Below are positions 2,274-47,100 of a DNA stretch of 64,000 nucleotides, one piece after another (position 1 is the first letter of the stretch; every line of letters starts with the position of its first letter). The translations under genes were made by a program, and so were the position numbers. Under the pieces are notes generated by a model. That model was not told the DNA's origin. It searched no databases and saw only the letters and a list, made by a program, of their open reading frames with translations. This DNA comes from Candidatus Vogelbacteria bacterium RIFOXYD1_FULL_44_32 (lineage in GTDB: Bacteria > Patescibacteriota > Minisyncoccia > Phycocordibacterales > XYD1-FULL-46-19). The stretch covers positions 106,869 to 170,868 of the forward strand of contig MHTJ01000003.1 of NCBI GenBank assembly GCA_001823065.1, in the 5' to 3' direction.

Positions 2274-2274
2274 A

Positions 2275-4685: not shown

Positions 4686-4801
4686 GGGTTAATTTCAGAA
4701 GAGGGTCTTATTAATGCTCTCCTAACCCTAATCGTCATTTAGGGATCAAATGACAATTTCGTGCCGACACAGGAAGATAAATGACAAAAATTTCCATCAA
4801 A

Positions 4802-4836: not shown

Positions 4837-4860
4837 ACATCGTCATCCCAGACAGAATGA

Positions 4861-5613: not shown

Positions 5614-5635
5614 GCTTTATATTATATCTCAAAAA

Positions 5636-5655
5636 TTGGCATTTGTTGGCATTTG
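5636..5655. promoter_or_regulatory. tandem direct repeat TTGGCATTTG x2 (candidate operator) upstream of the 4861..5613 gene
   Basis: Exact 10-bp tandem duplication about 20 bp upstream of the start codon on the minus strand. Confidence 0.4.
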
Positions 5656-5892
5656 GTTTCCACAACAGAGAACGAAAGTGGCAGGAAGTCCAGACCAGCG
5701 ATAGGTAGACAGATGTTTTATGTCCAATTCGTCTCATTCTCAAAAAAGAGACCCCGACCCACAAACCCTAAAGTCTCAATGGAAAAGTTGCTCAAAAACC
5801 CTTACACTGCCTTATGTCACGGGTACCATACCCGAGTACACCGCAAAATAAGAAAACCAAAGCAGAGCTTTGGTCGACTATATTTTGCGATG

Positions 5893-6016
5893 AGGCGGAG
5901 GGATTTGAAAGCCGCAGGCGCGAAGCCGACCGCAGTAGCGGTCGTTGCCGAGGCAGGGTCGTGAAAATTTTGTTTTGACGAAAACAAAATTATTCCTGAT
6001 CAAATCCCTCCGCCTC
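5893..6016. repeat. nested inverted repeats: 17-bp IR (gaggcggagggatttga / tcaaatccctccgcctc) enclosing an 11-bp IR (aattttgtttt / aaaacaaaatt)
   Basis: Read directly from the sequence. The structure sits at the boundary between the GC-rich phage-like segment and the host-like genes. Confidence 0.6.
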
Positions 6017-6058
6017 AATGATTTCTACCGTACTTAAACTAGTTATAAATTAAAAAAA

Positions 6059-6811
6059 ATGACCACCCAAAAATTTTCCTCTACTGGCAACTTTGGTAAA
6101 TTGGCTGATCAATATAAAGTCGGTCGTAAAGGGGTCCCCGAAGAAGTACTGGATTATCTATGGTCCCATATTAAAAAATCAAAGCCGATGATTCTGGATG
6201 TTGGTTGTGGGACTGGCTTACCCAGTCGACAGCTCGCTGGGCGTGGTGCACTGGTGACGGGAACAGATATTTCTCCGGAAATGATTAGAGCGGCGAAAGA
6301 GAACAGCCAGGAAAATATCTCTTATCTTGTAGCTTCCACTCAAGCTCTACCTTTTCCCGATGAATCATTTGATATTGTTACTTCTTTTAGTGCTTTTCAT
6401 TGGTTTACTGATACCAAGTCTACAAAGGAGATGAAGTGGGTACTAAAACCTGGTGGCCCGATTTTTATTGTAAATAAAAATGATATCGGAGATTTTAGTC
6501 AGGGCTATCGATCTATTTTCCGCCAATATATGACCGAGGATCTCCCTCGTATTAAAAATGGATATAGCCCTGATCAAATCCTCCAAGAAGCGGGTTTTGG
6601 TGATATAAAAAGGACAGTATTTCCGGTGTCTGAATTTTTTACCATAGAGCAAGTTATGGATTACTTTCAGTCGGTAAGTGGTTGGAACTTAGTTCCGCCA
6701 GAGTCTAAGAAAGAAGCCCTCGAGTTACTAAAGGAATATGCGCATGGAAGAGCGGAAAATGGAGTAGTAGAAAGAAAATTGGAGATTATAACTCAACTTG
6801 GATTCAGATAG
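6059..6811 (+). CDS. class I SAM-dependent methyltransferase
   Basis: ILDVGCGTG motif I plus downstream acidic and aromatic motifs. Confidence 0.75.
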   Translation: MTTQKFSSTGNFGKLADQYKVGRKGVPEEVLDYLWSHIKKSKPMILDVGCGTGLPSRQLAGRGALVTGTDISPEMIRAAKENSQENISYLVASTQALPFPDESFDIVTSFSAFHWFTDTKSTKEMKWVLKPGGPIFIVNKNDIGDFSQGYRSIFRQYMTEDLPRIKNGYSPDQILQEAGFGDIKRTVFPVSEFFTIEQVMDYFQSVSGWNLVPPESKKEALELLKEYAHGRAENGVVERKLEIITQLGFR

Positions 6812-6889
6812 CTGGTCGAACCACCTCGCCCTATGGTGTATAATCTTTGAATGACTACTGATAATATTTGGGCAATTTTTTAATATATT

Positions 6890-9800: not shown

Positions 9801-11677
9801 GTGATTTACTGCAGGTCCATATTGACTCGGCCAATCGGTCTTTGCGAGACTATTTGGAAGTTTTAGCTTTAGGAGAAGATGTTTTAAACCAAGCCGAAGA
9901 CGAAGGGTTTGACTCACTCCAAACAGAAGATGAGCAATTACTGAAGGCCGTATTTGCCAAACTGCGAACCTTGTTTGAGGTTTCCCAGTTGGGTTCTTCG
10001 GCCGAGGTTGGTCCCCTTGCCGACCCAGATCTTCAAAATCAATATGAAAAGTTAAAGCAAAGTTTGAAAGTTGGACCAGGACAAAAGATTACCGACCGAA
10101 TCACCGATATGTTTTTGCGCCCGATTGGCGCCCGGACAATGGGCGAAGTTTTGGAGCGGATGAAGTCGGCTAAAGAGCTAGCCCACCAGCGCAATGTTGA
10201 AGCAGTCCAGCAAGCTGACCACGGTTATGTAGAAGTGGCACCGGGGGACCTCTTGAAAGGGGTAAGAGCCGAGTTTATTGAAGATATTTTACAAAATGGT
10301 TCGGTGGCCAAAGAATTTTTAGGGGGCAAAGCCGAATCTGACGCCACCCCTTTTGATACAGACGTAAGCCAAGTGTTGGTCGAAGATTTTACGGAGACGG
10401 ACAATGTGCGCACTAGATTTGCCGGAGCAATCGGAAAGTCTTTGGCCACTGGTTATGGCCCTCTTCTCTTCTTAGTCAAAAATCATGGGCAGTTTTCCGC
10501 TGGGCCTAACAAAAAAGCGCAGTACGAGCTTTTTGGGGCTGGGGGTGGCGATTTGGCCACTGCTCGTCATTGTGGAATTAGGACTGGTTTTGCCACTACC
10601 GAAGTCGATGCCATTATTGCCAATGATCTGGAGGGCAAAGTACCAGATAATTTGTATTTTGAAATCAGCCAAAATGGCTATTATATACCGGTGGCCGATC
10701 GGACAGGGAAAATTATTTTTACACCTGAAATGTATGACGAGAAAAGAAAAACCTTTGCTGGGTTAGATAGGTTTGACGGACCACCGCTTGCGGTAGCAGA
10801 GACAAAGCCAGAAGAGGCTCATTATAATGAGATCCAAAAAACTAAGAAAAAATCTTACGAATCTCAGACTTTATCACAAGAGGCGATGAGGGTGATAAGC
10901 GACTCGGTCCGCGAGACCTTAAGCGAGGCGGGAGTTAACCTGAAAAATCGCTTTGACACGGGAATTTTGGGTGCTCGTCTCGAAGACATTGGTTCAACTG
11001 GTCGTGGTACCAATCTTGATACCCATTTTGACTTTGATTTAATGCTTAGTCTCGACGCTAATGATTTTCCTAAGGCCGAAACGATTGCCCAGCAGCTGAT
11101 ATTAGCTTGTCGTTATGAAGGCAATGACTCCCATGTGGATCAAGGGGGTTACTATCAATTAAGACTAAAAGGGGTTAGGGAAATAGCCGGCCGAACTTTT
11201 GCTGAGCCAATTGATCTGGATATCGGTTTCAATCGCAGTGCCGATGTTAAGATTTTTGGTACCCATGAAGCTATTAAAGAAAGATTGGATTGGATCGAAG
11301 AGACCGTGGGTGCAGATACTAAAAATGAAGTGGTGGCTAATATTGTTTTAGCCAAGGAAGTTCTAAAAGCTGGTCATTGTTATAAAAAATTAGAAGATGG
11401 TGGTATGGGTGGTGCGGGTGTAGAGAATTGGATTTTAAAGCATGAAGGAAATTTGATTAAAGCTTTTGAAGCGTTCCTGACCGCGGCCACCGATGACAAA
11501 GGGCAGGTGGTTTCCCTGGAAAAATTTAGAAAGAATTATGACATTACTGATCCGGGAATAAATACTAAATATCTAAAGCATGATAATTTTATCTTAAATC
11601 TAAAGCCAGAGGGCTATCAAAAAATGGTGACAACCATAACTGATTATTTATATATTGGCGGGTTTTACACTGCCTAA
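6890..11677 (+). CDS. giant 1595-aa protein with a C-terminal Pol-beta-superfamily (CD-NTase/OAS/MNT-like) nucleotidyltransferase domain
   Basis: Uninterrupted 4.8 kb ORF. Near residue 1367 it has IGSTGRGTNLDTHFDFDLML (GS-x-RGT...D-h-D) and, about 60 aa later, IDLDIGF as a third acidic strand. The N-terminal 1300 aa have no motif I recognise. Confidence 0.7.
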   Translation: MSSEKVKVDSNADEHEPTKEGELFLETENQDRDKIVFNQKKDREQEEQEERLQYLADQAEEDFHQLKLQDIKDKLLKKEEPLPDIVKVPNLQSVRQEQKTAKKSFQQKIKDKMVDTVLGKDYRKESAWIYYLEKNIPVKKYIRESIAVSDGGAEAVIAKHQAEEYEVTDDYVIHMGEEPTREISFAKEMPYVMAKPQNEFDRGDQDKLRSYLHLRHDPVEVTELLKLAGREVFANNFVEHNYYFGKTMRELIDTPHIVEVLQWLIQVGVTFDYIYDSYLEKLCSSPYVEKLTPQLASAVRATVGGETKHLMYMLPDCLDRNIFEGEHAGEDFQIIRKFGFELFDKLDEVGLLGEARKLVGQGIFKIEKLFDEFKSKNFSGNNDSQARLETFANIINSSALQSLEKDEGAMAIAKKLHRLVGIQIEPTDPDLEKLKILETDPTAMAVAGVLNRLSGADHFFGDLDDFVKIMGDKRAVESLCDEKAIDFVSRFIKQYHYRLGLSDFTPPYSIFDIPNQLDQEKLLAADTVALYEKLHTLGYNLNLCKLDVFMGMVENKDQWQEILADDIYTELLRSILKKSSLEDIKDVLLIEQVEAKLLNQLSTAFDYSINEDYAKSDRSYVTALLSHPEQIEALFEPQRIALIKHLNRRTRGFGYYVGGFHLRELNSYMKIPLETLRIFELFDKTDGNTVGSSEIDLIKQLVGYKNEEILKAVSILENLLLVEKSNGPSSGSEKFKFRLESDSLRTVLEVLQNGFTVTDLQKLQDFWLKKYGDSYGRHYTLEDKQVKASRDILQYLPQLVAFEKDEANLEAIYQEISEYLGSFRGDLDLFTVDKIVKIRDIGLLEVFRKIKDDQRVVQFVYANVDKYSEIPPEKIEDYISVIIKINQSPSQEIQRLKNSLMGEIMATSDPVAAYDKIEQVFVKNNLPLVGKVYKIFEIIHPAAVLAQQVKKCPSPELKKKRGRAVQATFLSDLLQVHIDSANRSLRDYLEVLALGEDVLNQAEDEGFDSLQTEDEQLLKAVFAKLRTLFEVSQLGSSAEVGPLADPDLQNQYEKLKQSLKVGPGQKITDRITDMFLRPIGARTMGEVLERMKSAKELAHQRNVEAVQQADHGYVEVAPGDLLKGVRAEFIEDILQNGSVAKEFLGGKAESDATPFDTDVSQVLVEDFTETDNVRTRFAGAIGKSLATGYGPLLFLVKNHGQFSAGPNKKAQYELFGAGGGDLATARHCGIRTGFATTEVDAIIANDLEGKVPDNLYFEISQNGYYIPVADRTGKIIFTPEMYDEKRKTFAGLDRFDGPPLAVAETKPEEAHYNEIQKTKKKSYESQTLSQEAMRVISDSVRETLSEAGVNLKNRFDTGILGARLEDIGSTGRGTNLDTHFDFDLMLSLDANDFPKAETIAQQLILACRYEGNDSHVDQGGYYQLRLKGVREIAGRTFAEPIDLDIGFNRSADVKIFGTHEAIKERLDWIEETVGADTKNEVVANIVLAKEVLKAGHCYKKLEDGGMGGAGVENWILKHEGNLIKAFEAFLTAATDDKGQVVSLEKFRKNYDITDPGINTKYLKHDNFILNLKPEGYQKMVTTITDYLYIGGFYTA

Positions 11678-16192: not shown

Positions 16193-16637
16193 AGTTTGTT
16201 GTTGGATGATCGCTCGATGAGGTTTTAATTATCTCATAGGGAGGAAAGTCCGAACACGTACTTTAATTTTTTAAAGTAACCGGGTAGCAGGTAATACCTG
16301 TCGCGCGCAAGCGCCGAGGTGCGAACAGAGACGCCTAGAGGTGAAAACTAAAAGGCACCCCACCCGCCTGACGGCGGGTGGGGTGAGCTCTATCGAAAGG
16401 TAGAAGTTGAAACGGCCAAATCCTTACTCACGTGCAAGATCGTATTCTCAATGCTTGGCATTGAGTCTGTATCGCTCGAGGTGATTGGTGACAATCATCC
16501 CAGATAAATGGTCATCCCCTGTGGAATAAAGAGTTTAAAGTTTAGAGGTATAACAGATTCAGGACAACTGTCAGTGTCTGTGAATATTTTGAACTTTTTA
16601 TTCCACAGGGACAGAATTCGGCTTATAGACAACAAAC
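16193..16637 (+). ncRNA. rnpB: RNase P RNA (bacterial type A)
   Basis: GGAGGAAAGTCCG (P4 5' strand) near the 5' end and ACAGAAtTCGGCTTAta (P4 3' strand) near the 3' end. The P1 helix pairs agtttgttgt with acaacaaact. The roughly 445-nt region has no ORF. Confidence 0.8.
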
Positions 16638-16647
16638 TAAAAATATG

Positions 16648-26811: not shown

Positions 26812-27149
26812 GCTTGGGTAGCTCAGTTGGTAGAGCATTCGCCTGACCCTAAAAACTTCGGGCCCTTCCACTGGAAAGTGGATTGAAAAAGTGGGTGAAT
26901 TCGGGGAAAACCGTTTGCTGTATAGTAAGCGACAATCCCGAGCCAAGCCGAGCACCACTTTTGAATTTTATAAACTTCTAAAATTCAAAAGTAGTGCTCG
27001 GAAGGTGTAGAGACTATCCCGAAAGGGAGTACTTCTACTACTGTAGAGGGAAGCGCCCACCTCCAAAATCTATTTATAGAAAGGATGATGATATAGTCCA
27101 AACGCTCTGGAAGAGCGAAGGGTCGGCGGTTCGAACCCGCCCCCAAGCA
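26812..27149 (+). tRNA. tRNA-Phe (anticodon GAA) interrupted by a group I intron after U33 of the anticodon loop
   Basis: The 5' exon (26812..26844) gives the acceptor, D-arm and 5' anticodon stem. The 3' exon (27110..27149) gives GAAGA, GCGAA, the variable loop, T-arm GGCGG-TTCGAAC-CCGCC and acceptor CCCAAGC, which pairs perfectly with the 5' GCTTGGG. The spliced anticodon loop is CUGAAGA. Confidence 0.75.
26845..27109 (+). ncRNA. group I intron (about 265 nt) within tRNA-Phe
   Basis: The 5' exon ends in U and the intron ends in G. The P7 strands are gAGACUAu and AUAGUC (compare Tetrahymena cAGACUA / AUAGUC). The intron has no ORF. Confidence 0.65.
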
Positions 27150-27590
27150 CAAAAGAAGCCCCGAAAGGGGTTTTTCTTTTGTGCTTGGGGAGCAAGCCGT
27201 CTGCTCGGCTTGCGTGCGGGTTCGAAAGACGGAGACATGTCGAGCTTGCGAGACAGTCGAGTCCGGGTAGGAGCCACACAATATTTTAGGAGTGGAGCGA
27301 ACTAAAATATTGATGTGAGCTGACGCCGAACCCGCCCCCAAGCACACACGAAGGCCCCGCAAGGGGTCTTTTTCGTGTGTGCTTGGGGGCGGGTGGGGAA
27401 AGGTCGAAAACCGGGAGGTTTTTGTGGAGGAAGGCAACGAGCGAAGCGAGTGTTGGAAAACCGTGCCCGCCCGCAACGCCTGAGCTTGCGATGGCGGGCG
27501 GGGGTTTCCAAGTTCCCGTCCCCAAGATTAATAAATTAGCGAACTAAAATATTGATGTGAGCTGACACCGAACCCGCCCCCACAAATTTC
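27131..27590 (+). repeat. degenerate tandem repeats (units of about 195 and 245 bp plus a partial third), each starting with a copy of the tRNA-Phe 3' end (cgaacccgcccccaagca) followed by a long hairpin/terminator and ending agcgaactaaaatattgatgtgagctgac
   Basis: Direct comparison of 27131.., 27326.. and 27571... Each unit has a 13-15-bp perfect stem (ccccaagcacaaaag / cttttgtgcttgggg, and the variant with cacacg) around a mini-hairpin and a T-run. Confidence 0.6.
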
Positions 27591-35649: not shown

Positions 35650-38600
35650 ATGAACTCTGACTTAACTTTTATAACAAATGAGGGGGGAAACAATCTAAAG
35701 GATAGATTTAGTAAGTTAATTAAAGATACTAGATTTTTTGATGTTTTAGTTGGTTATTTTTATACAAGTGGTTTTTACGCTATTTATCCTCAACTCGAAA
35801 AGACTGAAAAAATTAGAATCTTGATTGGTATCAGTACAAACAAGCAAACCTATAATCTTTTACAACAAGTTCAATCTCATAAAGTAGTTAGTGATACTGT
35901 CGGCGACAGTGTTAAAGCAGAAATGGAAGAGAGTGATAACAGTTATGAAGTTGAAAGTGGCGTGTACAAATTCCTAGAATGGATCAAAAGCGATAAGCTC
36001 GAGATTCGAGCTTATCCAGAGGAAAAAATACACTCAAAAATTTACATAATGACTTTCGAAGAAGATGATCGAGATATTGGGCGAGTTATTACTGGCTCGA
36101 GTAACTTTACTCAAAGTGGTCTTGTAGACAACCTCGAGTTTAACGTCGAGTTAAAGAATCCGTCTGATTATGACTACGCAAAGAATAAATTTGAAGAATT
36201 ATGGAATAAAGGTGTAGATGTAAGTGAAAGATACACAGAAACAATTGAAAAAGATACTTGGTTGCGTGAGGACATCACACCTTATGAGTTGTATTTAAAA
36301 TTCTTATACGAATATTTCAAAGAAGAAATTAATGAGGACAATGAAATTGAACATAGATACAGACCAGAAAATTTCAAAGAACTAAAGTATCAAGATCATG
36401 CTGTAATTAATGCCAAAAAAATTGTTGAGGAACACGGAGGAGTATTTTTGTCAGATGTGGTTGGTCTCGGAAAAACATACATGGGAACCATGTTGTGCCA
36501 GGAGCTCGGAGGGAGGACTTTGGTTTTGGCTCCTCCTCATCTTATTGATGAAAACAACGAAGGTAGTTGGGAAAATGCCTTTAAAAATTTTGGGTTTCGA
36601 TCCCGAGACTATAAGTGTATGTCTATTGGTGCACTGGATAAAATTATTGAAAAAGGGCTTCACTCTGAATTCGATACAGTGCTAATAGACGAGGCGCACA
36701 GGTTTCGGACTGAAGAAACTGAGACGTATGCTAAACTTGCTCAAATATGTCGAGGACGGAAAGTTATACTTGTAACCGCCACTCCATATAACAATTCACC
36801 TAGTGACTTACTCTCACAAATTAAACTGTTTCAGCGTGTAAAGAAAAGTACTATCCCAAATCTTGTTGATATAGAGAGTTTATTCAAAGTATTAGAAAAG
36901 AATCTTAAAGGTTTAGATCGTAAAAAAGACAAAGAACAGTATTTAGCTGTTACTCAATCAAATTCAAAAATAATTAGAGAAAGATTGTTGAAGTATCTGA
37001 TGGTCCGACGAACTAGAACAGAAATTGTCAAATATTACGGTGAGGATTTGAAAGAACAGAAGATGAAATTTCCTGAGGTTGCGGATCCAGCACCTGTTTT
37101 TTATGAGTTCAATGAAAAGGAAAATGAAATTTTCTTTCAGACAATAAAAATAGTTACAACTGAATTTAAGTATTCTCGATATACTCCGTTGCTTTACCAT
37201 AAGGGTTTGTCTAGTGTGGAGGAGCAACAACAGACAAACATGATGAAGTTTATGAAGATGCTGCTTGTGAAGAGACTAGAAAGCAGTTTTTATGCGTTTA
37301 ACATGTCAATTCACCGCTTTATCAGGTCATATGAAAAGTTTATCTCCGAATTTGAGTCTGGTAGTGTGTATATAAGTAAGAAACATACACAAAAAATATT
37401 TGACCATCTTGAAGCTGGTAATATCATGGCTGTCGATGAATTGGTCGAATCCGGGAAAGCAGAAAAGTTTTCAAAAGAAGAATTCAACGAAAGGTTTATC
37501 ATTGATTTGAAAAAAGATTTAGAAATACTTAAAAATATAAAACAACTATGGAGCGAGATTGATAGGGACCCGAAGATTTTGGCATTTAAGGAAAAGCTTG
37601 TATTAGAGAAGCCTGTAGTGGAAGGAAAATCAATTATTTTCACAGAGTCTAAAGAAACTGCGCAGTATTTATTAGAGAATCTGCAAGATGTCTTTCCAAA
37701 TAAAATTTTGTATTTTTCTGGCGCAAGTTCACGGGCTGAGCGTGAGATTGTGATGCAAAACTTTGATGCAAACACAAAGAATAAAAAGGATAACTACTCT
37801 ATTCTTATTACAACAGATGTGTTGTCTGAAGGTGCCAACTTACATCAAGCAAATGTTGTTATCAACTATGACATACCATGGAACCCGACCCGTATTATGC
37901 AAAGAGTCGGGCGTATTAATCGCGTTGACGCTAAGCACGAAAAAATATTTACCTATACTTTCTTTCCGACCGATCAATCTAATGAGCAAATTAAACTAAG
38001 AGAATTGGCGGAAGCAAAAATACAAGCATTTATAACTCTACTTGGTGCAGATGCAAAACTTCTTACAGAAAATGAAGTTCCAGAAGGACATAGCCTCTTT
38101 AGTCGCATCCTCTCAAAAGAATTAATCTCGGGCGAAGACGACGAAGTCGAGAGTGAACTTGGATATCTACAGGAAATTAGAAAAGTAAGAGATGAAGACC
38201 CAAGTTTATTTGAAAAAGTAAAAAGGCTACCTAAAAAAGCAAGAACCGCAAGGATAAATGTGGACAAAAACCCACGGCTCCTAACTTACTTTAGAAAAGG
38301 CAAGTTGCAGAAGTTCTTTATAGTCGAATCCGGCCAAGCTGCAGTTTCTACAGAATTAGATTTTACTGATGCTGCTAAAATGCTCTCTGCTAAACCAATT
38401 GAACGACGTGCATCTCTAAATGAAATATACTTCACCCTTCTTAAGTTAAATCTTGAAATGCTGAAGTCTGTGAATGAACTAGAGGAGGATGAATTTTCTG
38501 CAAGACGAGGGAGTAGAGATAACTCCGCTCGTCTATCCAAAATCCTTAAGGCAAAAGAAATAAAAAATTACAAAGGGTTTACAGAGGATGATGAGTTGTA

Positions 38601-38835
38601 TATCGGTCGAGTAATTGAAGAATTGGATTTTGGAGGTGTGCCCAAGAAAATTGCACAGAAAATTTATAAAAAAGTCGAAGACACACCAGAAATTATTGCA
38701 AACCCAATAAAGCTACTTGGGGTATTAAAAACTTTGCTTCCCAATGATTTCTTAAATCCAACCCTGCAAGAACAAGAATCAGGTACACTGATTAGAAGTG
38801 AAATAATTCTCTCAGAGTATTTTACTGGTAAATAA
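35650..38835 (+). CDS. PLD-family (HKD) nuclease domain fused to an SNF2/SWI2-family helicase (DrmC+DrmD-like)
   Basis: The N-terminus has IHSKIYIM...GSSNFT (HxK...GSxN). The central part has VVGLGKTY (Walker A), LIDEAHRFR (DEAH) and TATPYNNSPSDL. The C-terminal helicase lobe has QRVGRINR. Confidence 0.85.
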   Translation: MNSDLTFITNEGGNNLKDRFSKLIKDTRFFDVLVGYFYTSGFYAIYPQLEKTEKIRILIGISTNKQTYNLLQQVQSHKVVSDTVGDSVKAEMEESDNSYEVESGVYKFLEWIKSDKLEIRAYPEEKIHSKIYIMTFEEDDRDIGRVITGSSNFTQSGLVDNLEFNVELKNPSDYDYAKNKFEELWNKGVDVSERYTETIEKDTWLREDITPYELYLKFLYEYFKEEINEDNEIEHRYRPENFKELKYQDHAVINAKKIVEEHGGVFLSDVVGLGKTYMGTMLCQELGGRTLVLAPPHLIDENNEGSWENAFKNFGFRSRDYKCMSIGALDKIIEKGLHSEFDTVLIDEAHRFRTEETETYAKLAQICRGRKVILVTATPYNNSPSDLLSQIKLFQRVKKSTIPNLVDIESLFKVLEKNLKGLDRKKDKEQYLAVTQSNSKIIRERLLKYLMVRRTRTEIVKYYGEDLKEQKMKFPEVADPAPVFYEFNEKENEIFFQTIKIVTTEFKYSRYTPLLYHKGLSSVEEQQQTNMMKFMKMLLVKRLESSFYAFNMSIHRFIRSYEKFISEFESGSVYISKKHTQKIFDHLEAGNIMAVDELVESGKAEKFSKEEFNERFIIDLKKDLEILKNIKQLWSEIDRDPKILAFKEKLVLEKPVVEGKSIIFTESKETAQYLLENLQDVFPNKILYFSGASSRAEREIVMQNFDANTKNKKDNYSILITTDVLSEGANLHQANVVINYDIPWNPTRIMQRVGRINRVDAKHEKIFTYTFFPTDQSNEQIKLRELAEAKIQAFITLLGADAKLLTENEVPEGHSLFSRILSKELISGEDDEVESELGYLQEIRKVRDEDPSLFEKVKRLPKKARTARINVDKNPRLLTYFRKGKLQKFFIVESGQAAVSTELDFTDAAKMLSAKPIERRASLNEIYFTLLKLNLEMLKSVNELEEDEFSARRGSRDNSARLSKILKAKEIKNYKGFTEDDELYIGRVIEELDFGGVPKKIAQKIYKKVEDTPEIIANPIKLLGVLKTLLPNDFLNPTLQEQESGTLIRSEIILSEYFTGK

Positions 38836-38837
38836 TC

Positions 38838-41800
38838 ATGAATAAGACAGAAGCAACAACAATAATCAATAAAACATTTAGCTCAAGTTTTGATGAGGAT
38901 AGTTTTAATCTTTTTGTATCAAATCTTTTTAAGGAATATGAGCCAGTAGAAAAAAGACCTTTTATTAAAAATGCCTTCACTGCATATGTTTCTGAGTATA
39001 AGATAATTGGACACTATAAAGATAGTGAAGAAAAAGAAATCGATATATTAAAAGTTCATCTTAATCATGTTCTATCAATTGAACGAGCCAGAACTGCTCA
39101 GAGAAACTTTGTAGCGGACTATTTAAAAACGAATGGTAAAAACGCAGCTCTAGTAGCTTTTGTATCACCAAAATACGATGACTGGAGACTTTCGCTTGTG
39201 AGGCTAGAACATTCCCTGGAAGTCGTAGATGAGAAACTAAAAACTAAAGAAGAAATAACACCTGCTAAAAGATGGTCATTCTTGGTTGGAAAAAACGAAG
39301 GAAGCCATACTGCTCAAAGTAGATTTACAGATCTTTTGGTTCACAATGAAAGGCCCACATTGACTGAACTAGAGTTAGCTTTTGACATAGAGAAAGTCAC
39401 TAAAGAATTTTTTGATAAGTATACTGAGTTGTACTTTAAATTGAAGGAACATCTAGATGAAATATTGAAAAAGGATGAGAAGATAAAAAGTGATTTTGAA
39501 TCAAAGGAAATTTCAACGGTAGACTTTGCTAAAAAAACATTAGGTCAAATTGTTTTTCTTTATTTTCTTCAAAAAAAAGGGTGGTTTGGGGTAGCGGCAG
39601 ATAAAGAATGGGGGGAAGGACCTAAAAAGTTTATTAGATTATTGTTTGGCCGACGAGGCCTATATGGTAAAAACTTTTTTAATGATGTTCTTGAGCCCTT
39701 ATTTTATGAAGCTTTGGCTCAAGACAGAGGCAAGGAATCAATTTATCCACGACTGAATAATTGTCGGATGCCATTCCTCAACGGTGGATTATTTGAGCCT
39801 ATGAATGGTTATCAGTGGGAGACAACGGATGTTATTATTCCTGATGAGTTATTTTCAAATACACACAAAACAAAAGAGGGAGATATCGGAGACGGTATCT
39901 TAGATGTTTTTGATAGATACAATTTTACAGTAAACGAAAACGAACCATTAGAAAAAGAAGTGGCAGTTGATCCGGAAATGCTAGGAAAAGTTTTTGAAAA
40001 TCTTCTTGATATTAAAGATAGGAAAAGCAAAGGGGCTTTCTACACACCTCGAGAGATTGTACATTATATGTGTCAACAAAGCCTAATCAACTATCTTGAA
40101 ACAGAAACTAATGGAGAAGTTTTAAAAGAAGATATTGAAACTTTTATCAACAAAGGAGATTTTATTATTGAGAATGATAAAATTGCCCTAGAAAGAGAAA
40201 AAAACAGAAAAGCAAAGGGTGCAAAGTATGAAGATAAGACATATGCGTTACTCCTTCCTGAGTCAATAAGAGCGCAAGCAGATACGTTCGACAAATTGCT
40301 TAAAGAGGTAAAGGTAGCTGATCCCGCAGTTGGGTCTGGGGCTTTTCCACTGGGAATGATCAATGAGATTGTACGTGCAAGAAAAGTTTTAAATATCTAC
40401 AATTCATCTGAGATTTCTGATTATGATCTAAAACTACATACAATTTCAAATTCAATACATGGAGTTGATATTGATCCTGGAGCTGTTGAGATAGCTAAAC
40501 TTCGGCTGTGGCTTGCATTGGTTGTGGAAGAAAAAGAACCCCATCCACTCCCTAACCTTGAACATAAGATTATGCAGGGAAATAGTCTTATTTCTGAGTA
40601 CGAAGGAATTAAACTGTTTGATGAAAATATTATTGAAAAAAGAGATTCAGATGAGGTTATGCAAAACACTCTTGGCTTAGGAAAATCTGGTTCTGAGTTA
40701 AAAATGGAAGACCTGCAAAATAAAATAGAGCTGTATGTAAACGAGTCTCAGAGAAGTAAAAAACAAAAGCTAAAACAAGATATAGATAACCTGAAATGGG
40801 AGCTCATTGAAGTTACTCTTGAAGAACAAAAAAAAGTAGATAAGCTGGTTGAGATTAAAAAGTTCCGACGTAAAAACATTCGCCCATTTTTTATTTGGAG
40901 ATTAGAGTTTAGTGATGTCTTCAAAAAGAAGGGTGGTTTTGATGTGGTAATCGGTAATCCTCCTTATGGATTCAGAGATGTACTCACAAAAAAAGAGAAA
41001 GAGTATTTTAGAAAAGTTGAGAAAATTGAATTTCAAAGCGGAGACTCTGCAGAATTGTTTTGTAAAAAATCATTTGATACGCTGCTTAAGGATAATGGTA
41101 TTCTGTCCTTTATAATCCCTAAAAAATGTACCTATGGTGACTCTTGGGGTGGATGGAGAACCAATTACTTCAAAAAGTATGATCTACATTTTGTATTGGA
41201 TTCAGGGAAAGCGTTTGACAGAGTTCTGCTTGAGCAAACTGCATTTGGTTTGGCTAAAAAAATACAAAACGCGGAAGTCCAATTGTCTTTTTTAGATAGT
41301 AAAAAAGATAAGATTCATCATTTTTCCAAATCAACCAAAGACAGTATTTTCAAAGAAAATAATACTCTTCAGATATACTTGGAATATTTCCCGAGAAGTA
41401 TTTTTGAGAAAATACAGAGAAAATCAGAACCGAACCTTTTTGTTAGTGGTGATTTAGGACTTGGAATTGGTATTGATTTTTTTTCTGACGAAGAAACTCC
41501 TAATAAATTACTAAAAGGAATTGATATTGACCGTTGGAATATTAGAGGACATAGGTATCTAAAAAATAGAGAAAAATTGAATTGGAAAAAAGCTCAGGGG
41601 TTTTTGAGACCAAAAGTAATATGTCAGAGACTTGTTGCACACATTGAAAATCCTTCCCCGCATATAAGAATTAATGCATGTTTTGACTCCGAAGGAATTA
41701 TTATTACCAATACAATAACCGCATTTAAGTTAAATGAAATGATAGAGGAAAAATTTTGGTTAGCGTATTTAAATTCTTCCTTAGTTAATTGGTATACGTA

Positions 41801-42065
41801 TAACTTTATTTATGGGCGCGCTATTAGAGGTATGGATTTTTATAGTTTCTATATTGAGCAAATACCAATTCCCAATATTTCTCATGATCACCAAAGTAGG
41901 TTTGTAGAATTAGTGAATCAAATATTAGATATTACTAAAGATAATAATTATGATTCTAAAAATGTAACAGCGCAACAGAAATTTCTAGAAAAACAGATTG
42001 ACGAGATGGTTATGGATCTATATGAGTTAACTCAAGAAGAGAAAGAGATTGTCCATAAAACTTAA
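38838..42065 (+). CDS. large N6-adenine DNA methyltransferase, Eco57I/PglX/DrmMI-like (gamma-class)
   Basis: DPAVGSGAFPLG (motif I) and VVIGNPPYG (motif IV, NPPY). 1075 aa with a long N-terminal region and a C-terminal target-recognition region. It starts 3 bp after the helicase stop. Confidence 0.85.
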   Translation: MNKTEATTIINKTFSSSFDEDSFNLFVSNLFKEYEPVEKRPFIKNAFTAYVSEYKIIGHYKDSEEKEIDILKVHLNHVLSIERARTAQRNFVADYLKTNGKNAALVAFVSPKYDDWRLSLVRLEHSLEVVDEKLKTKEEITPAKRWSFLVGKNEGSHTAQSRFTDLLVHNERPTLTELELAFDIEKVTKEFFDKYTELYFKLKEHLDEILKKDEKIKSDFESKEISTVDFAKKTLGQIVFLYFLQKKGWFGVAADKEWGEGPKKFIRLLFGRRGLYGKNFFNDVLEPLFYEALAQDRGKESIYPRLNNCRMPFLNGGLFEPMNGYQWETTDVIIPDELFSNTHKTKEGDIGDGILDVFDRYNFTVNENEPLEKEVAVDPEMLGKVFENLLDIKDRKSKGAFYTPREIVHYMCQQSLINYLETETNGEVLKEDIETFINKGDFIIENDKIALEREKNRKAKGAKYEDKTYALLLPESIRAQADTFDKLLKEVKVADPAVGSGAFPLGMINEIVRARKVLNIYNSSEISDYDLKLHTISNSIHGVDIDPGAVEIAKLRLWLALVVEEKEPHPLPNLEHKIMQGNSLISEYEGIKLFDENIIEKRDSDEVMQNTLGLGKSGSELKMEDLQNKIELYVNESQRSKKQKLKQDIDNLKWELIEVTLEEQKKVDKLVEIKKFRRKNIRPFFIWRLEFSDVFKKKGGFDVVIGNPPYGFRDVLTKKEKEYFRKVEKIEFQSGDSAELFCKKSFDTLLKDNGILSFIIPKKCTYGDSWGGWRTNYFKKYDLHFVLDSGKAFDRVLLEQTAFGLAKKIQNAEVQLSFLDSKKDKIHHFSKSTKDSIFKENNTLQIYLEYFPRSIFEKIQRKSEPNLFVSGDLGLGIGIDFFSDEETPNKLLKGIDIDRWNIRGHRYLKNREKLNWKKAQGFLRPKVICQRLVAHIENPSPHIRINACFDSEGIIITNTITAFKLNEMIEEKFWLAYLNSSLVNWYTYNFIYGRAIRGMDFYSFYIEQIPIPNISHDHQSRFVELVNQILDITKDNNYDSKNVTAQQKFLEKQIDEMVMDLYELTQEEKEIVHKT

Positions 42066-42089
42066 TCCTGTTGATTGGTTATAATTCTC

Positions 42090-42998
42090 CTAGGCTTCTG
42101 AAAGTGGCAACTGGTAGTTTTGAAGTGCACTATGATGATCCAGAACTTTTTTGATGTAAAATTCGGTTTTTAGGCCCTCGAGGGTTTCAAATTGTTTTCG
42201 TATAATTTTTACGCGCAAAATGTCGTCTTTTGCAAAAGCCTCATTATTTGACTGTACCCGTCGTAAGAAATCACCATCTTGTACTTCAGCCCAAAAATTC
42301 GTATTTCCGTCAGAAAAGCGCCATTTATTGTTTTCTTGAAACACAGCACTAATGATTTGCAGACTGATTTCGTACTCTTGCTCGTCGATCAACTTTTCTT
42401 GCAGTTCTGGAGATATAAAATATCTAGATTCGTCTTTTGAAATAGTCTCAATCATTTCAGAATCAGAATTAAAACTAATTTCTTCGATCCCATCTCTTGC
42501 GAGTGGCTTATAAATAACAGCTTCAAGTGATCTGCGAATTTTTACGACAGGCAGTAATTTTGCGGTTTTATTATCTATCTCAAGGGTGTCATCGTCTTCA
42601 AGTTCGATTCGAATATTACCAGATGTGAGTTTTATAACATTGGTAATTTTCCTGTTTTTTAACCATTTAATCAACTTTACCAGTCCTGTGATGCCAGTGC
42701 CACCATAAACTAATACTTCTAATAAGTTTAATGCGCCGGCAACATCCTTGTTATTAAAAAGATCAAGAGCTTGTGTTGCAAAATCTTGAACCAGATTGAG
42801 GTCAACACCTAATGATCCGTCTTTAAATGCTCGTACGTTCAAGACAACCTTGGTCCGGCTTCCATTAAGGACGCGGTTTGCTTCTTCTACTGCTTCGCCA
42901 AGGGCGAACAGTGCAGGAGATAACTCTTTTACATCCATCTCGTGGTTTTGCAGTGCGAAGCCATCATATTTAAGTGTGAAGAATGTGCTTTTTTCCAT
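42090..42998 (-). CDS. hypothetical protein (302 aa), convergent with the MTase in the same AT-rich island
   Basis: ORF only. Low GC like the helicase and MTase. Confidence 0.5.
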   Translation of the reverse strand: MEKSTFFTLKYDGFALQNHEMDVKELSPALFALGEAVEEANRVLNGSRTKVVLNVRAFKDGSLGVDLNLVQDFATQALDLFNNKDVAGALNLLEVLVYGGTGITGLVKLIKWLKNRKITNVIKLTSGNIRIELEDDDTLEIDNKTAKLLPVVKIRRSLEAVIYKPLARDGIEEISFNSDSEMIETISKDESRYFISPELQEKLIDEQEYEISLQIISAVFQENNKWRFSDGNTNFWAEVQDGDFLRRVQSNNEAFAKDDILRVKIIRKQFETLEGLKTEFYIKKVLDHHSALQNYQLPLSEA

Positions 42999-43099
42999 AT
43001 CGTTAATTTAATTATAGTCAATAAATGCAATATGCGCACGAAGATTGTCCACTCGAACTTTTACAGGGCTACATAGGTCTGAGCTTGGTTTGAAATATG

Positions 43100-43230
43100 T
43101 TGATCGGTGGTCAATCTTCTATACTCAAAAAATGAAAAATATAGTCTTGTTTGGAGATAGTTTTCTGGGACAATTCCCATCTTTGTTTATACTAGCATTT
43201 TGCAAAACACTAGTATAAGAAAATTGGGGG
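43100..43230. repeat. direct repeat copy A (about 115 bp), paired with 44953..45185
   Basis: tatactcaaaaaatgaaaaatatagtcttgtttgg ... gggacaattcccatctttgtttatactagcattttgcaaaacactagtataagaaaat. Confidence 0.7.
43188..43217. promoter_or_regulatory. 30-bp palindrome tatactagcattttgcaaaacactagtata (candidate ArsR-family operator)
   Basis: 9-bp perfect inverted arms. A near-identical copy lies 28 bp upstream of the arsR-like start. Confidence 0.45.
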
Positions 43231-43422
43231 TTTTGATACCAAGGGGCGGGAAATGGGGAAATAGAGAATAGGGTCAGTAATGTTTTTTCACTTTTATGTT
43301 GGTAAAAAACAGCTAGTCGTTGGTTATTGTTATATTTTCTCAAATATGTTATAATTGTAGTTGGTTAAAAGCCCGATTCACGGGCTTTGTTTGGTCTATA
43401 CAAGGTAAAAGGAGTGAGAACT

Positions 43423-44823
43423 ATGAAGTTGGGATTGATGTTTATCGCAGTCGCTGGTGGTATTTCACTAGCGGCGTCGGCCGAAGGGCCGAGCTTACCA
43501 CACGCCCAGCCGGTAGAGGATTTGGGGGCCGTCTCTTGGGCGGTGTCTGACGCTATGAAAGCTCAAACGTCTGTCTCTGACACGAAAGCGGCCCCGGTCA
43601 CTTACACAGTGCCGGGCGACTTTCCGACGATTCAGACAGCGGTCGACGCGGCCGCCCCTGGCGATGTGATCGAGGTTACCGGTTCGCACTCGGGGCAGGT
43701 GCTCGTCACCAAGTCTATCAGCCTGATTGGTGTCGGGAGTGGGGCCACAATTGCCGCCACCGATGCCATGCCGGTGGCTTTGGTCCAAGGAACGACCAGT
43801 TTCCGACCAGTGGTTTTTGTCGGTAGCACGGGTGCGGTTGTAATCGAGAATATCGACATCGACGGCCTCGGGAAGGGTAACACCAACAACAGCTTCGTGG
43901 GTCTCTTGGTTCACGACTCGGAAGTGAGTGTGGCATCCTCAACGGTTACTGGTATTGTAAGTACGCCACTGGATGGCAGCCAGCACGGCGTTGGTATTCG
44001 TTCATCTGGAGCATCGGTTTTGCAGCTCCAAGACGTGAATATTAACAACTTCCAGAAAAACGGCACCGCCTTTACTCCGACGACACATGTCGTTTGGAAC
44101 GGTGGCACTGTTGCGGGCGCCGGTCCGACGGCGGTTACCGCTCAAAATGGGGTGCAGTTTGGCTCGGGGTCTGGTGGGGTGACCGGTAGTATCACCGGTG
44201 TGACGATCCGAAATATCGATTACACTGGTGCCGGTTGGACCGCTTCGGCCCTTCTGATCTACTACTCCGACGGGTTACAGGTTACCAATTGCGTCGTTGA
44301 AGACAGCCAGGCCGGGTTGTACACCTATGAGGCGGAGAACCTTGTCTTTACCGACAATATTTTCGACCAAAACCAGTTCAACCTGGTCTACGGCGGGAGT
44401 GCTACCTTTATCGGCAACACCTTCTCCAACAGCGATGACGCTGGTGGGTATGGCATAGGGCTCTGGCTCTATGATGTACTGGGTGCGACGGGCACCGGCA
44501 ACACTTTCGAAAACAACCCGTATGGGTTGTACGTCGCCGGCACGAGCACTGGTGTTAATTTCCCGGATTCGCGTTTTGTCTACAACGTCGAAAGTTGTGT
44601 GAACGAGACCACGGAGACGGTGAATATTACTCACTCCTGGTGGGGCGACCCAGCCGGACCGGGGACATGCCCGGTTGGCTTCGACTGTTCGGACTGGCAG
44701 ACCCATGATGGGCCACTGCCGGTACCGGCCACCAGTACTTTTGGCCTTCTAGGTCTGGTGCTAGCCCTAGTCGCCGGTGGGCTATTTTACATTAGCCGGA
44801 CCGTCGGCAAGTCCTACCTCTGA
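43423..44823 (+). CDS. secreted right-handed beta-helix (pectate-lyase-fold) repeat protein with a C-terminal hydrophobic anchor, GC-rich
   Basis: Signal peptide MKLGLMFIAVAGGISLAASA, Gly/Thr/Asn-rich beta-helix-like repeats (NxxGxxxxxS) and a C-terminal LLGLVLALVAGGLFY. The start is taken at MKLGL, preceded by aaaggag. Confidence 0.65.
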   Translation: MKLGLMFIAVAGGISLAASAEGPSLPHAQPVEDLGAVSWAVSDAMKAQTSVSDTKAAPVTYTVPGDFPTIQTAVDAAAPGDVIEVTGSHSGQVLVTKSISLIGVGSGATIAATDAMPVALVQGTTSFRPVVFVGSTGAVVIENIDIDGLGKGNTNNSFVGLLVHDSEVSVASSTVTGIVSTPLDGSQHGVGIRSSGASVLQLQDVNINNFQKNGTAFTPTTHVVWNGGTVAGAGPTAVTAQNGVQFGSGSGGVTGSITGVTIRNIDYTGAGWTASALLIYYSDGLQVTNCVVEDSQAGLYTYEAENLVFTDNIFDQNQFNLVYGGSATFIGNTFSNSDDAGGYGIGLWLYDVLGATGTGNTFENNPYGLYVAGTSTGVNFPDSRFVYNVESCVNETTETVNITHSWWGDPAGPGTCPVGFDCSDWQTHDGPLPVPATSTFGLLGLVLALVAGGLFYISRTVGKSYL

Positions 44824-44850
44824 CCTGAAATTGAAATGTGTGAATCCTGG

Positions 44851-44882
44851 CCTGGGAGCGCTTTCGCTCCCAGGCTATTTTT
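44851..44882 (+). terminator. rho-independent terminator
   Basis: cctgggagcg-ctttc-gctcccagg followed by ctattttt. Confidence 0.65.
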
Positions 44883-44952
44883 ATAAAATAATTATTTTGA
44901 TAAGCCTAGAAACAGTGTCAGGCACCTTTATTTAACCCCGCGGGGAATTTAT

Positions 44953-45185
44953 TTTGCTATACTCAAAAAATGAAAAATATAGTTTTGTTTGGGCTAAAAC
45001 ATTCGTAGCCGAATGTTCGCCCCTTAGTTTGCTTTTGCAAACCGGGCGAGCGTATGAAAACGCGCTATAGCCGAACACCCCCTAAAAGAAGGGGTGTTGT
45101 AGGGACCTATAATTTCCTGGGACAATTTCCATCTTTGTTTATACTAGTGTTTTGCAAAAGACTAGTATAAGAAAATCAGGAGTGA
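44953..45185. repeat. direct repeat copy B, interrupted by a 118-bp hairpin-rich insert (45000..45118)
   Basis: Both arms match copy A. The insert contains aacattcg/cgaatgtt and aacacccc/ggggtgtt inverted repeats. Confidence 0.65.
45140..45169. promoter_or_regulatory. 30-bp palindrome tatactagtgttttgcaaaagactagtata immediately upstream of the arsR-like gene (candidate autoregulatory operator)
   Basis: Read directly from the sequence. Confidence 0.5.
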
Positions 45186-45197
45186 TATAATTTATTT

Positions 45198-45470
45198 ATG
45201 GCACTAGACTACCGAAAGATTGAGAGACTAATAAAAGGAGTTGCTAATCATAACCGGTTGAAGATTTTGGAATTGCTCCAAAAAGAGCCAGAACTCTCAG
45301 TTGCAGACATAAGTGAGCGGCTCAAAATAGGGTATGAGAATGCTTCCGACCATATTCGTAAGATGGCTATAGCCGGACTTCTGATGAAACGTAATGACGG
45401 TCCAAACGTCCGCCACAAACTGACACCCCGTGCCCTCTCTATACTAGTGTTTTGCAAAAGACTGCAATAA
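45198..45470 (+). CDS. ArsR/SmtB-family HTH transcriptional regulator
   Basis: ANHNRLKILELL...LSVADISERL winged HTH. 90 aa. The last 11 codons are a partial copy of the palindromic repeat. Confidence 0.8.
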   Translation: MALDYRKIERLIKGVANHNRLKILELLQKEPELSVADISERLKIGYENASDHIRKMAIAGLLMKRNDGPNVRHKLTPRALSILVFCKRLQ

Positions 45471-45557
45471 GAGAATAATTTAGAAATGAGAAATGGGGTC
45501 GGGCACTATTAATCTATGCATAATCCCACTGGGAAGTAATTTGCTATAATTAAACAT

Positions 45558-45842
45558 ATGATTAAAGAATATATTTCTTACCTAAAAGACAATCCACAGG
45601 GGCTGTGGTTTAAGCGAAAGCTCTATGGCTGGGGTTGGGTGCCAGTGCGCTGGCAGGGTTGGCTGGTGGTGGCTATTGCCATTACTCTGGTTACTTTCTG
45701 TATTTATATTGGCGACACCGATGATGCTCCCGGGGCGGCGGGCTTGGGGGTTTTGCTCGCCGTGGTGCTAATATTTACCTTTGGCTATTGGAAGGGTGAA
45801 AAACCCCGCTGGCAGTGGGGACCACCGAAAGAGAAGGAATAG
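45558..45842 (+). CDS. small membrane protein (94 aa)
   Basis: Two TM helices and Trp-rich ends. Confidence 0.4.
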   Translation: MIKEYISYLKDNPQGLWFKRKLYGWGWVPVRWQGWLVVAIAITLVTFCIYIGDTDDAPGAAGLGVLLAVVLIFTFGYWKGEKPRWQWGPPKEKE

Positions 45843-45846
45843 TTTT

Positions 45847-46098
45847 ATGACTAAGAAAGAGATTAGTACTAAAGTGGTACATAAATTGCCTACGGATTTA
45901 CGACAGGCTTTAATGAAAACACCGACAGCGCAAGCCGTCTGGGCAGATATTACACCACTGGCCCGTAATGAGTGGATTTGCTGGGTGACCTCCGGCCAGA
46001 AAGCCGAGACCAGAAATATTCGGATTGAAAAGGCAATTTCGAAACTTAAAGGCGGAATGCGCCGGCCTTGTTGTTGGGCTGGTTGCCCGCATCGGTGA
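45847..46098 (+). CDS. YdeI/OmdA-like small protein with a C-terminal CCWxGC motif
   Basis: The start is reset to MTKKE. The C-terminus is RRPCCWAGCPHR. The family assignment is tentative. Confidence 0.4.
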   Translation: MTKKEISTKVVHKLPTDLRQALMKTPTAQAVWADITPLARNEWICWVTSGQKAETRNIRIEKAISKLKGGMRRPCCWAGCPHR

Positions 46099-46365: not shown

Positions 46366-47100
46366 ATGAAAATAAATATAAAGGAGACTCTAAAATTTTT
46401 TGATCAAAGACAAAATAGTCGTGGTCATGCGTCTGCTATAGCCGGAGTCGTCGGTGAAGATCTCAATGCTTTTGTGTTCAAACATTATATGGAATTTGAA
46501 TTAAAAGCTAAGACAGTAAAAATTTTTGCTGGTCCAGTCAAACAAGGTACTAAGAAAGGTAAGTGGCTTGATAGATGGATATATGTTGAGGAAAGAGACG
46601 GCACTAAAATATTATATCAATGTGAAATAAAGAGTTGGTCGGCGGCTGCTTTTGGGGGACAAGATTTACTAGAGAAAGAAGGACTAGAAAGCGATGATAC
46701 TAAAAAAGTTGCTCTAAACCATTGGGAAAAACAGAAAAAGTTATTTTCAAAAGATAAAGAACCCAATCTTGTGACAAAAACGCTTGTACGAATGGATCCT
46801 AATCGCAATAAAGAGGTGAAGGAATTTCTAAAAGAGAGAAGGATAAATAAGAAAGATTATAAACAGAAACCACTTTTACTATATTGGATGCCTATTTCTA
46901 ATGAAGAAGACCGCACCCCTTTTTTCTCAGAGAAAGTGTTGAAGTTAAAAATAAATTTTAAATCAAATTTTAAGGAGAAATTGTATATATTTTCTGTTTC
47001 TTTATATCTCCGTAAATTAGGTAAAAAGAAATTTCTACCCTTAAATATGCCTAATGTTAAAAAACGCATAGACATACTAAATAAGATTGTAGTTTCATAA
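46366..47100 (+). CDS. hypothetical protein (244 aa), AT-rich, with a possible PD-(D/E)xK-like motif
   Basis: YVEERDG...YQCEIKSW gives a D...ExK spacing. Very AT-rich and Lys-rich. Confidence 0.4.
   Translation: MKINIKETLKFFDQRQNSRGHASAIAGVVGEDLNAFVFKHYMEFELKAKTVKIFAGPVKQGTKKGKWLDRWIYVEERDGTKILYQCEIKSWSAAAFGGQDLLEKEGLESDDTKKVALNHWEKQKKLFSKDKEPNLVTKTLVRMDPNRNKEVKEFLKERRINKKDYKQKPLLLYWMPISNEEDRTPFFSEKVLKLKINFKSNFKEKLYIFSVSLYLRKLGKKKFLPLNMPNVKKRIDILNKIVVS

Follow-up and report, generated by a model that had tools for sequence, protein, structure and literature searches.

A conserved palindrome in Patescibacteria, the probable operator of an ArsR/SmtB-fold regulator, recurs within the regulator's own gene

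Autorepressors of the ArsR/SmtB family (SmtB, CzrA, CadC, HlyU, BigR/SqrR) act on 12-2-12 inverted-repeat operators. In the HrcA-CIRCE system, a long inverted repeat conserved across phyla serves one repressor, whose own operon is among its targets; CIRCE controls a coherent chaperone regulon and does not lie within hrcA. Operators can also occur within coding regions, as lacO2 does in lacZ and galOI in galE, and parS sites are found inside spo0J/parB. The Patescibacteria, most of them uncultivated, account for a large share of bacterial diversity; their genomes are tiny and hold few regulators, and to our knowledge almost nothing is known about their transcriptional control. Here we analyze a palindrome and the small regulator gene next to it, arsR, in a 64,000-nucleotide stretch (the window) of contig MHTJ01000003.1, which belongs to the Rifle aquifer genome of Candidatus Vogelbacteria bacterium RIFOXYD1_FULL_44_32 (assembly GCA_001823065.1, positions 106,869 to 170,868).

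The palindrome occurs three times in the window, always at the arsR locus, and does not behave as the generic repeat of the repetitive extragenic palindromic (REP) kind that an initial annotation of this DNA had named as the alternative. We put the probability at about 0.72 that the palindrome serves as operator for the 90-aa ArsR/SmtB-fold protein encoded next to it, that the pair is conserved throughout the Patescibacteria, that the gene encodes a further copy in its own tail, and that two repeats found nearby are a duplication of the arsR 5′ region; this estimate rests on sequence comparison. Full-text literature searches found no description of this pair, or of an ArsR palindrome from the Candidate Phyla Radiation (CPR). 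The pairing appears to be new within a known family, and sequence evidence supports well both the pairing and the DNA-constrained, self-encoded operator.

The regulator and its palindrome across Patescibacteria

Both direct repeats that flank a beta-helix gene in the window carry the palindrome TATACTAGnnTTTTGCAAAAnnCTAGTATA, which takes the form TATACTAG(CA/TG)TTTTGCAAAA(CA/GA)CTAGTATA. Full 30-bp copies lie at 43188-43217 and 45140-45169. Both had been credited with perfect 9-bp arms, which holds for the second copy; in the first, the arms are perfect over 8 bp. The second copy (TATACTAGTGTTTTGCAAAAGACTAGTATA) is the candidate primary operator. It ends 28 nt before the arsR ATG, the gap originally annotated, and would occupy about -58 to -29 if the transcript is leaderless. 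A third palindrome, at 45440-45469, matches the second exactly over its first 24 nt and then continues with the right arm CTGCAATA.

The arsR gene (45198-45470, plus strand) encodes a winged-helix protein of the ArsR/SmtB fold. The family assignment made in the initial annotation agrees with the fold and with the Pfam profiles, whereas the NCBIfam profile of the family falls just short of its cut-off. The Pfam models HTH_5 (ArsR; 29.9 against a gathering score of 22), HTH_20 (31 against 27) and HTH_24 all score above their gathering thresholds. An AlphaFold2 (AF2) model with a predicted local distance difference test (pLDDT) score of 81.6 has the element order α1-α2-α3-α4-β1-β2-α5, which is the ArsR/SmtB topology. 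Foldseek searches with this model returned CadC (1u2w) first, with a template modeling (TM) score of 0.87 and a root-mean-square deviation of 1.4 Å, then HlyU, SmtB, CzrA and SqrR; the top matches span TM scores of 0.79-0.87. Sequence matches in the PDB include CadC, HlyU, CzrA, SqrR and PagR, and homologues of the regulator form 1137 clusters. Helix α5 comprises residues 77-89 of the model and is the part of the protein that the third palindrome encodes, with the single invariant cysteine, Cys86, encoded by the palindrome centre.

The palindrome core ACTAGnnTTTTGCAAAAnnCTAGT was sought in 185,579 species genomes, one genome per species. It was found at 26 loci, all of them in Patescibacteria (Kaiser-, Wolfe- and Zambryskibacteria, Paceibacterota and Saccharibacteria), and nearly all of these loci have the full TAT...ATA arms. 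An ArsR homologue, 69-88% identical to the protein studied here, adjoins the palindrome at 12 of the 26, where the site either lies 11-37 nt before the start of the homologue or forms the 3′ end of the gene. Viral contigs gave 0 matches.

To guard against circularity, 80 metagenomic ArsR loci were fetched by protein alone, and the site was sought only afterwards. An upstream site was accepted with at most 6 mismatches over 26 specified bases within 200 nt of the start, and most sites had at most 4. By this measure 72 of the 80 loci have an upstream site, which mostly ends 14-45 nt before the start, and in 78 of the 80 a site occurs at the stop codon. All 65 unique upstream sites share the same centre, TTTTGCAAAA (65/65). 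Arm position 4/27 covaries symmetrically in this set (T:A 24, G:C 15, A:T 6), while positions 10/21 are unconstrained and are complementary in only 42% of sites. The outer flanks often lengthen the palindrome to 40-46 bp. The palindrome had earlier been likened to an ArsR operator, and its occurrence beside independently selected homologues and the restriction of its core to one superphylum are what would be expected of a cognate operator.

The position of the upstream site suggests how it might work. A putative extended -10 element, TGATATAAT (45183-45191, plus strand), ends 6 nt before the ATG at 45198, and close relatives have the same TGATATAAT 7-9 nt before theirs. A -10-like hexamer ending 4-11 nt before the start is present at 39 of 69 loci, compared with a mean of 16 and a maximum of 25 in shuffled sequences, and a Shine-Dalgarno-like sequence is present at just 3 of the 69. 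This geometry, combined with the scarcity of Shine-Dalgarno sequences, points to leaderless transcripts in which the operator covers the -35 region and the DNA just upstream. The operator at 45140-45169 would then abut the -35 region of the arsR promoter, which is apparently leaderless. The regulator, presumably in the form of one dimer or two, may bind there and regulate its own gene. Such a position is typical of autorepression, and repression is the most likely mode. A leaderless start would put the centre of the site near -43.5, a position also compatible with a class II activator.

A palindrome within the arsR coding sequence

Read in frame, the palindrome gives the codons TCT ATA CTA GTG TTT TGC AAA ACA CTA GTA TAA, translated as S I L V F C K T L V stop, and every homologue ends in ...SIL(V/A)FCKxLx*. 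In the window this putative second operator (45440-45469) comprises arsR codons 81-90 and the stop, encodes helix α5 as SILVFCKRLQ*, and has the variant right arm. A partial third copy forming the end of the regulator had been noticed previously. It is indeed present, as the last ten codons plus the stop, and is not a remnant but a feature of the whole family that is under selection at the DNA level.

The evidence for that selection comes from codon usage in the tails of 66 distinct arsR genes. The Leu83 codon is CTA in all 65 genes with leucine at that position, a codon that accounts for 6% of leucine codons elsewhere in the gene, and the Ser81 codon is TCT in 50 of 51 cases against a background of 14%. 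Phe85 is always TTT, Cys86 always TGC and Lys87 always AAA (66/66 each). The fraction taken by the major codon is therefore 1.00 at L83, F85, C86 and K87; elsewhere in the gene its median is 0.50 and its maximum 0.76. Among synonymous codon pairs, third-position identity is 0.891 over codons 81-87 and 0.405 over codons 2-78. Synonymous sites in the tail are thus nearly frozen, and the site must have been selected as DNA within the coding sequence. Recent horizontal spread is argued against because the body of arsR is saturated with synonymous change. The tail codons, including that of the invariant cysteine, would never drift because the operator overlaps them. A palindrome that doubles as the α5 codons and the stop of a protein is a clear natural case of overlapping protein and DNA codes.

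The arm CTGCAATA is not a product of decay, because non-coding upstream sites and solo sites share it; one locus, L043, has it on both sides. No remnant of arsR coding sequence was found upstream of the solo sites with this arm. The idea that the roughly 85 nt before the palindrome derive from the arsR 3′ end was tried and dropped, as similarity outside the palindrome was only marginal (p about 0.03).

At 55 of 71 loci the gene after arsR runs in the same direction, and the median gap between the tail site and that gene is 35 nt; both values depend on crude gene calls. Since the next gene follows at so short a distance, the tail operator has a position before it similar to that of the upstream operator before arsR. 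In the window, a scan tool reported a promoter-like TTGCAA-16-AATAAT at 45452-45479, reading toward a gene for a 94-aa protein. The second operator, written into the α5 codons and the stop and maintained by selection on the DNA, may therefore be positioned to control the promoter of the next co-directional gene in most relatives. Alternatively, it could serve as an auxiliary operator.

Several sequences around the arsR unit recur elsewhere. A promoter module (GTGTCAGGCACC...CCCCGCGGGG...TTTTGCTATACT) at 44883-44956 on the plus strand has two homologues, one preceding the 94-aa gene at 45480-45557 and one preceding a DUF3850 gene in a relative, L004; these were aligned by eye. A module of about 60 nt (AAATGGGGTCRGGCAC..TTAAT, a short CCC..GGG hairpin and TTTGCTATAMT) stands on both sides of the arsR unit, at 44905-44965 and 45480-45557. 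Its copies in L004, at 45-125 and 880-950, drive other genes (DUF3850 and DUF2207), and at 43245-43275, after palindrome 1, the first part of the module can be recognized in degenerate form. Downstream of arsR, 45558-46098 encodes the 94-aa membrane protein and an OmdA/YdeI-domain protein; in other Patescibacteria (L067, L084, L105, L071 and L088), homologues of the two recur within about 2.5 kb of arsR. At L071 and L088, a degenerate palindrome directly follows the OmdA gene.

The flanking repeats and the beta-helix cassette

The initial annotation had described two repeats of about 115 bp bracketing the beta-helix gene. They are present, at a length of 113 bp. Repeat copy 1 (43119-43231, plus strand) consists of 43119-43154 and 43157-43231, and repeat copy 2 (44957-45183, plus strand) of 44957-44992 and 45109-45183. 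The left 36-nt block differs between copies by one mismatch (97% identity), and the right 75-nt block, which holds the palindrome, is 88% identical. Neither block gave a match in 100 dinucleotide-preserving shuffles of the window (0 matches), and the window holds no further copies of the repeat. Homology between the two copies begins within a -10-like element, CTATACT, and stops within the arsR -10 element, between GATA and TAAT. Because the homology ends there, copy 1 is an operator without a promoter, its -10 having been lost. Copy 2 appears to be the resident arsR 5′ region. An error of assembly can be excluded, as independent assemblies agree on the arrangement.

Between its two blocks copy 1 has just AG, and copy 2 has 116 nt (44993-45108, plus strand). 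These 116 nt are an insertion, because they are absent from copy 1 and from L004, and may have entered the arsR-proximal copy later than the duplication. The insert had been described as a 118-bp element of two hairpins resembling a miniature inverted-repeat transposable element (MITE), and a search for further copies had been proposed. It is predicted to fold into four hairpins, two of them perfect 8-bp stems, and the 136-nt stretch that holds it (44985-45120) has a folding energy of -52.6 kcal/mol (z-score -4.4). The MITE comparison is not borne out: the hairpins are internal, there are no terminal inverted repeats, and neither the 64-kb window nor 586 kb of related loci contains a second copy. 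Rfam searches of the region at gathering and permissive thresholds returned nothing relevant, and the insert itself had no match.

The beta-helix gene belongs to a cassette at 43306-44882 (plus strand) with a predicted promoter (TTGTTA-17-TATAAT, 43327-43355), a 5′ untranslated region (5′-UTR) hairpin (43368-43388), the open reading frame (ORF; 43423-44823) and a terminator hairpin (44848-44877). The 5′-UTR hairpin is terminator-like (AAAGCCCG-ATTCA-CGGGCTTT, then GTTTGG) and lies between the promoter and the ribosome-binding site; it could be an attenuator.

The ORF encodes 466 aa and has a GC content of 56.7%, slightly below the 58% first reported, and 64% at third codon positions (GC3), compared with 44% for the window. 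The protein has the expected N-terminal signal-like segment and, in its model, a C-terminal hydrophobic helix (439-458). Profile matches (Pfam Beta_helix, 47.3 bits; NosD, 40.3 bits) and fold both place it among right-handed parallel beta-helix proteins. It is not NosD itself, because it scores 42.6 against NosD_copper_fam in NCBIfam, far under the cut-off of 300. The structural prediction suggested in the initial annotation gave an AF2 model with an overall pLDDT of 58.6 whose core, residues 190-400, is all-beta with pLDDT 70-90, a beta-helix fold. Foldseek matched the model to polysaccharide lyases, epimerases, tailspikes and NosD at low TM scores of 0.3-0.46. The model is too weak to bring the function closer than a polysaccharide-active or NosD-like beta-helix.

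Comparison with relatives separates the cassette from the repeats. The closest homologue of the beta-helix protein (89% aa identity) is in a sister genome, locus L115, where similarity to the window is confined to 43306-44882 (86.5% nucleotide identity). The shared span covers the promoter, 5′-UTR hairpin, ORF and terminator; in the hairpin the stem is conserved and the loop is different. In L115 the neighbours of the cassette are an ABC gene and a His_Phos_1 gene, and there is no palindrome; nor does a 53%-identical paralogue from another Vogelbacteria genome have one. Conversely, L004 encodes an identical ArsR protein (92% DNA identity) downstream of one uninterrupted 5′ region, with arsR between DUF3850 and DUF2207 and neither the 116-nt insert nor the beta-helix gene. 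The repeats thus belong to the arsR locus and not to the cassette. Two short contigs from other samples, L005 and L006, begin at about 44878, the right edge of the cassette, which hints at population variants at that junction.

These data suggest that the arsR 5′ region was duplicated in this particular lineage, giving the repeats of about 113 bp, when a separately acquired cassette, the GC-rich 1.58-kb beta-helix unit with its own promoter and terminator, arrived there. The upstream repeat would then remain as an orphan operator that lacks a promoter. One possible route to the duplication is Campbell-type integration by homologous recombination, and another is tandem duplication followed by loss of one arsR copy. 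This corrects the reading of the cassette: the repeats would be duplicated target sequence and not the ends of a mobile element.

A small ORF in the repeat (MKNIVLFGDSF...) was considered as a fragment of an SGNH hydrolase and rejected, as L004 reads EASF there and the substitutions are mostly non-synonymous. Directly upstream of repeat copy 1 lies a low-GC island at about 35650-42998 (0.31-0.38 against 0.44). Its genes include a phospholipase D (PLD)-nuclease/helicase, an Eco57I/MmeI-type methyltransferase (38838-42065) and, on the minus strand, a 302-aa ORF (42090-42998) that matches the NCBIfam model "LAPAL motif-containing putative phage structural protein" with 260 bits.

Competing explanations and relation to known systems

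In the initial annotation, the beta-helix cassette was mobile and had moved by recombination between the repeats at its ends, while the beta-helix gene and arsR were co-regulated from a shared operator. Direct repeats with intact palindromes do flank the gene, its base composition is foreign (GC 0.567, GC3 0.64), and it is absent from L004. However, movement by recombination between the repeats does not fit the fact that the unit shared with L115 lies wholly inside them, among other genes and free of palindromes, nor does it fit the palindrome-free Vogelbacteria paralogue. Palindrome 1 is also about 135-165 bp upstream of the cassette's predicted promoter, in a repeat that has lost its -10. 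At that distance the regulator could affect the beta-helix gene only through distant or looping effects. Co-regulation is thus unlikely, and we consider the mobile-cassette explanation as a whole improbable. A function of the palindrome as an RNA hairpin (a terminator, processing or stability element) is far less probable still. Perfect forms would give a stem of 13-15 bp, some sites are at gene 3′ ends or in intergenic regions, and the symmetric change at arm position 4/27 would be expected of a stem. Yet there is no U-tract on either side of the A+T-rich stem, which is followed by AGAAAAT, and a terminator scan made no call. Positions 10/21 are mostly not complementary, and in the tail and about 20 upstream sites CTAG on the left faces CTGC on the right, so that pairing is broken without compensation. 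The would-be loop, TTTTGCAAAA, is the most conserved part, and an RNA function would not account for the tight association with one DNA-binding protein.

Several observations weigh against a simple operator of an ArsR protein. The regulator scores 51.4 bits with the NCBIfam ArsR/SmtB model NF033788, just under the cut-off of 55, and lacks the known sensing motifs of the family: ELSVADI stands opposite ELCVCDI of CadC, so the α3 metal motif (CxC/ELCVCD) is missing, and α5 (PRALSILVFCKRLQ) has no His, Asp or Glu ligands for the DxHx10Hx2E motif. Genes beside solo sites are heterogeneous (ComEC, SufU, the tryptophanyl-tRNA synthetase TrpRS, a DDE transposase, PhnA/YjdM, MazF, a flavodoxin-like protein, DoxX_2, DUF1761 and RuvC), and some sites lie between convergent genes (L028, L014, L021). 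At L011, the palindrome and 6 nt (1085-1114) form an in-frame 12-codon insertion (PYTSLLQKTSIRN) in a Sua5/YrdC (TsaC) gene, whose domain has 190 residues for 178 profile positions. A Zambryskibacteria contig, MHVD01000015.1, contains a palindrome module of about 130 nt 3-4 times. The heterogeneous neighbours, the convergent sites, the Sua5/YrdC insertion and the repeated module are easier to reconcile with an element that disperses than with an operator of the classical type. The palindrome could then be primarily a small dispersing or recombinogenic element, such as a REP, a Rickettsia palindromic element (RPE) or a lox/dif-type 12-6-12 recombinase site, with the ArsR-like protein as its dedicated partner; genes would become bracketed by copies, as TrpRS is at L028 and the beta-helix gene and arsR are in the window, and copies could recombine. 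The frequent extension of the palindrome by its outer flanks and the lack of conserved arsR synteny agree with this. Against it are the low copy number, with only the arsR locus occupied in 64 kb, the consistent geometry relative to the arsR start at most of the 80 loci, the absence of any consistently linked recombinase or transposase, the lack of viral matches, and the synonymous saturation of arsR outside its tail, which argues against recent spread. On balance we regard a primarily dispersing element as unlikely, and the operator reading as the better account. There is a small chance that both aspects combine, and that the palindrome and the ArsR-like protein are a self-contained unit whose site copies disperse together with short flanks, insert even into coding sequence and bracket genes, either rewiring them under one regulator or marking the chromosome as parS does. 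If true, this would be a Patescibacteria-specific form of site dispersal or chromosome organization and not a simple autorepressor.

On contig MHVD01000015.1, the four palindromes are at L015 (5273), L028 (2547 and 3726) and L033 (3118), three of them within the module of about 130 nt. Two of these three modules also hold a perfect 38-nt palindrome, TTGGTATAATAAATAACGATCGTTATTTATTATACCAA, and two of the contig's sites bracket the TrpRS gene. The neighbours of arsR itself are not conserved, except for an occasional TspO, DUF1905 or OmdA gene or a homologue of the 94-aa membrane protein. We looked for a coherent regulon among neighbouring genes, and none emerged.

Elsewhere in the window, a tRNA-Phe(GAA) gene (26812-27150, plus strand) carries a 265-nt group I intron in its anticodon loop; the Rfam model Intron_gpI matches 26840-27118 with 55 bits, and ARAGORN calls the tRNA-Phe only when introns are allowed. 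A class A RNase P RNA (16194-16641, plus strand) scores 100.1 against an Rfam gathering score of 100. Its length exceeds that of the model by about 80 nt, suggesting insertions specific to this lineage. The sign of the GC skew changes at about 6 kb, where gene orientation also switches (window 1-6900), and two N6/N4 DNA methylase genes lie nearby on the minus strand (2654-3517 and 3390-4685). A replication origin at this switch was considered and dropped, since neither dnaA nor dnaN was seen there. A 1595-aa ORF (6890-11677, plus strand) has no Pfam match, and a 244-aa ORF (46366-47100, plus strand; GC 0.318) has no match in Pfam or NCBIfam.

The 90-aa regulator, with 70-88% identity across classes, and its 30-bp site with an invariant 10-bp centre make a concrete, testable pair. 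It offers an entry point for DNA affinity purification sequencing (DAP-seq) or chromatin immunoprecipitation sequencing (ChIP-seq), and for controllable promoters in the few cultivable Saccharibacteria.

Among described systems, RPE, REP with the bacterial interspersed mosaic elements (BIME), and MITEs are also short palindromic DNA; like them, the palindrome studied here occurs in intergenic regions and, at L011, once in frame within a gene, where it resembles an RPE insertion. Unlike them, it has a very low copy number, is conserved across classes instead of being specific to a species, and is tied to one regulator gene. As with lacO2 and galOI, a palindrome that presumably binds a protein is kept within an ORF, and as with parS in spo0J/parB, a site conserved across phyla, it is inside the gene of its presumed binding protein. 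In contrast to all three, the site here is the last ten codons and the stop, encoding α5, and we found no evidence for looping, spreading or segregation. Like CIRCE, the palindrome is nearly unchanged in very distant bacteria and is paired with one conserved regulator, but that regulator is of another protein family, the neighbouring genes are heterogeneous, and a site lies inside the regulator gene. The ArsR/SmtB autorepressors share with the regulator and its site the fold, the small size, a palindrome of about 26-30 bp overlapping the gene's own promoter and, by implication, autoregulation. The regulator differs from them in lacking the α3N motif (ELSVADI for ELCVCD) and the α5 metal ligands, and its operator differs in extending across a superphylum, in having a second copy within the regulator's own coding sequence, and in apparently governing a leaderless transcript.

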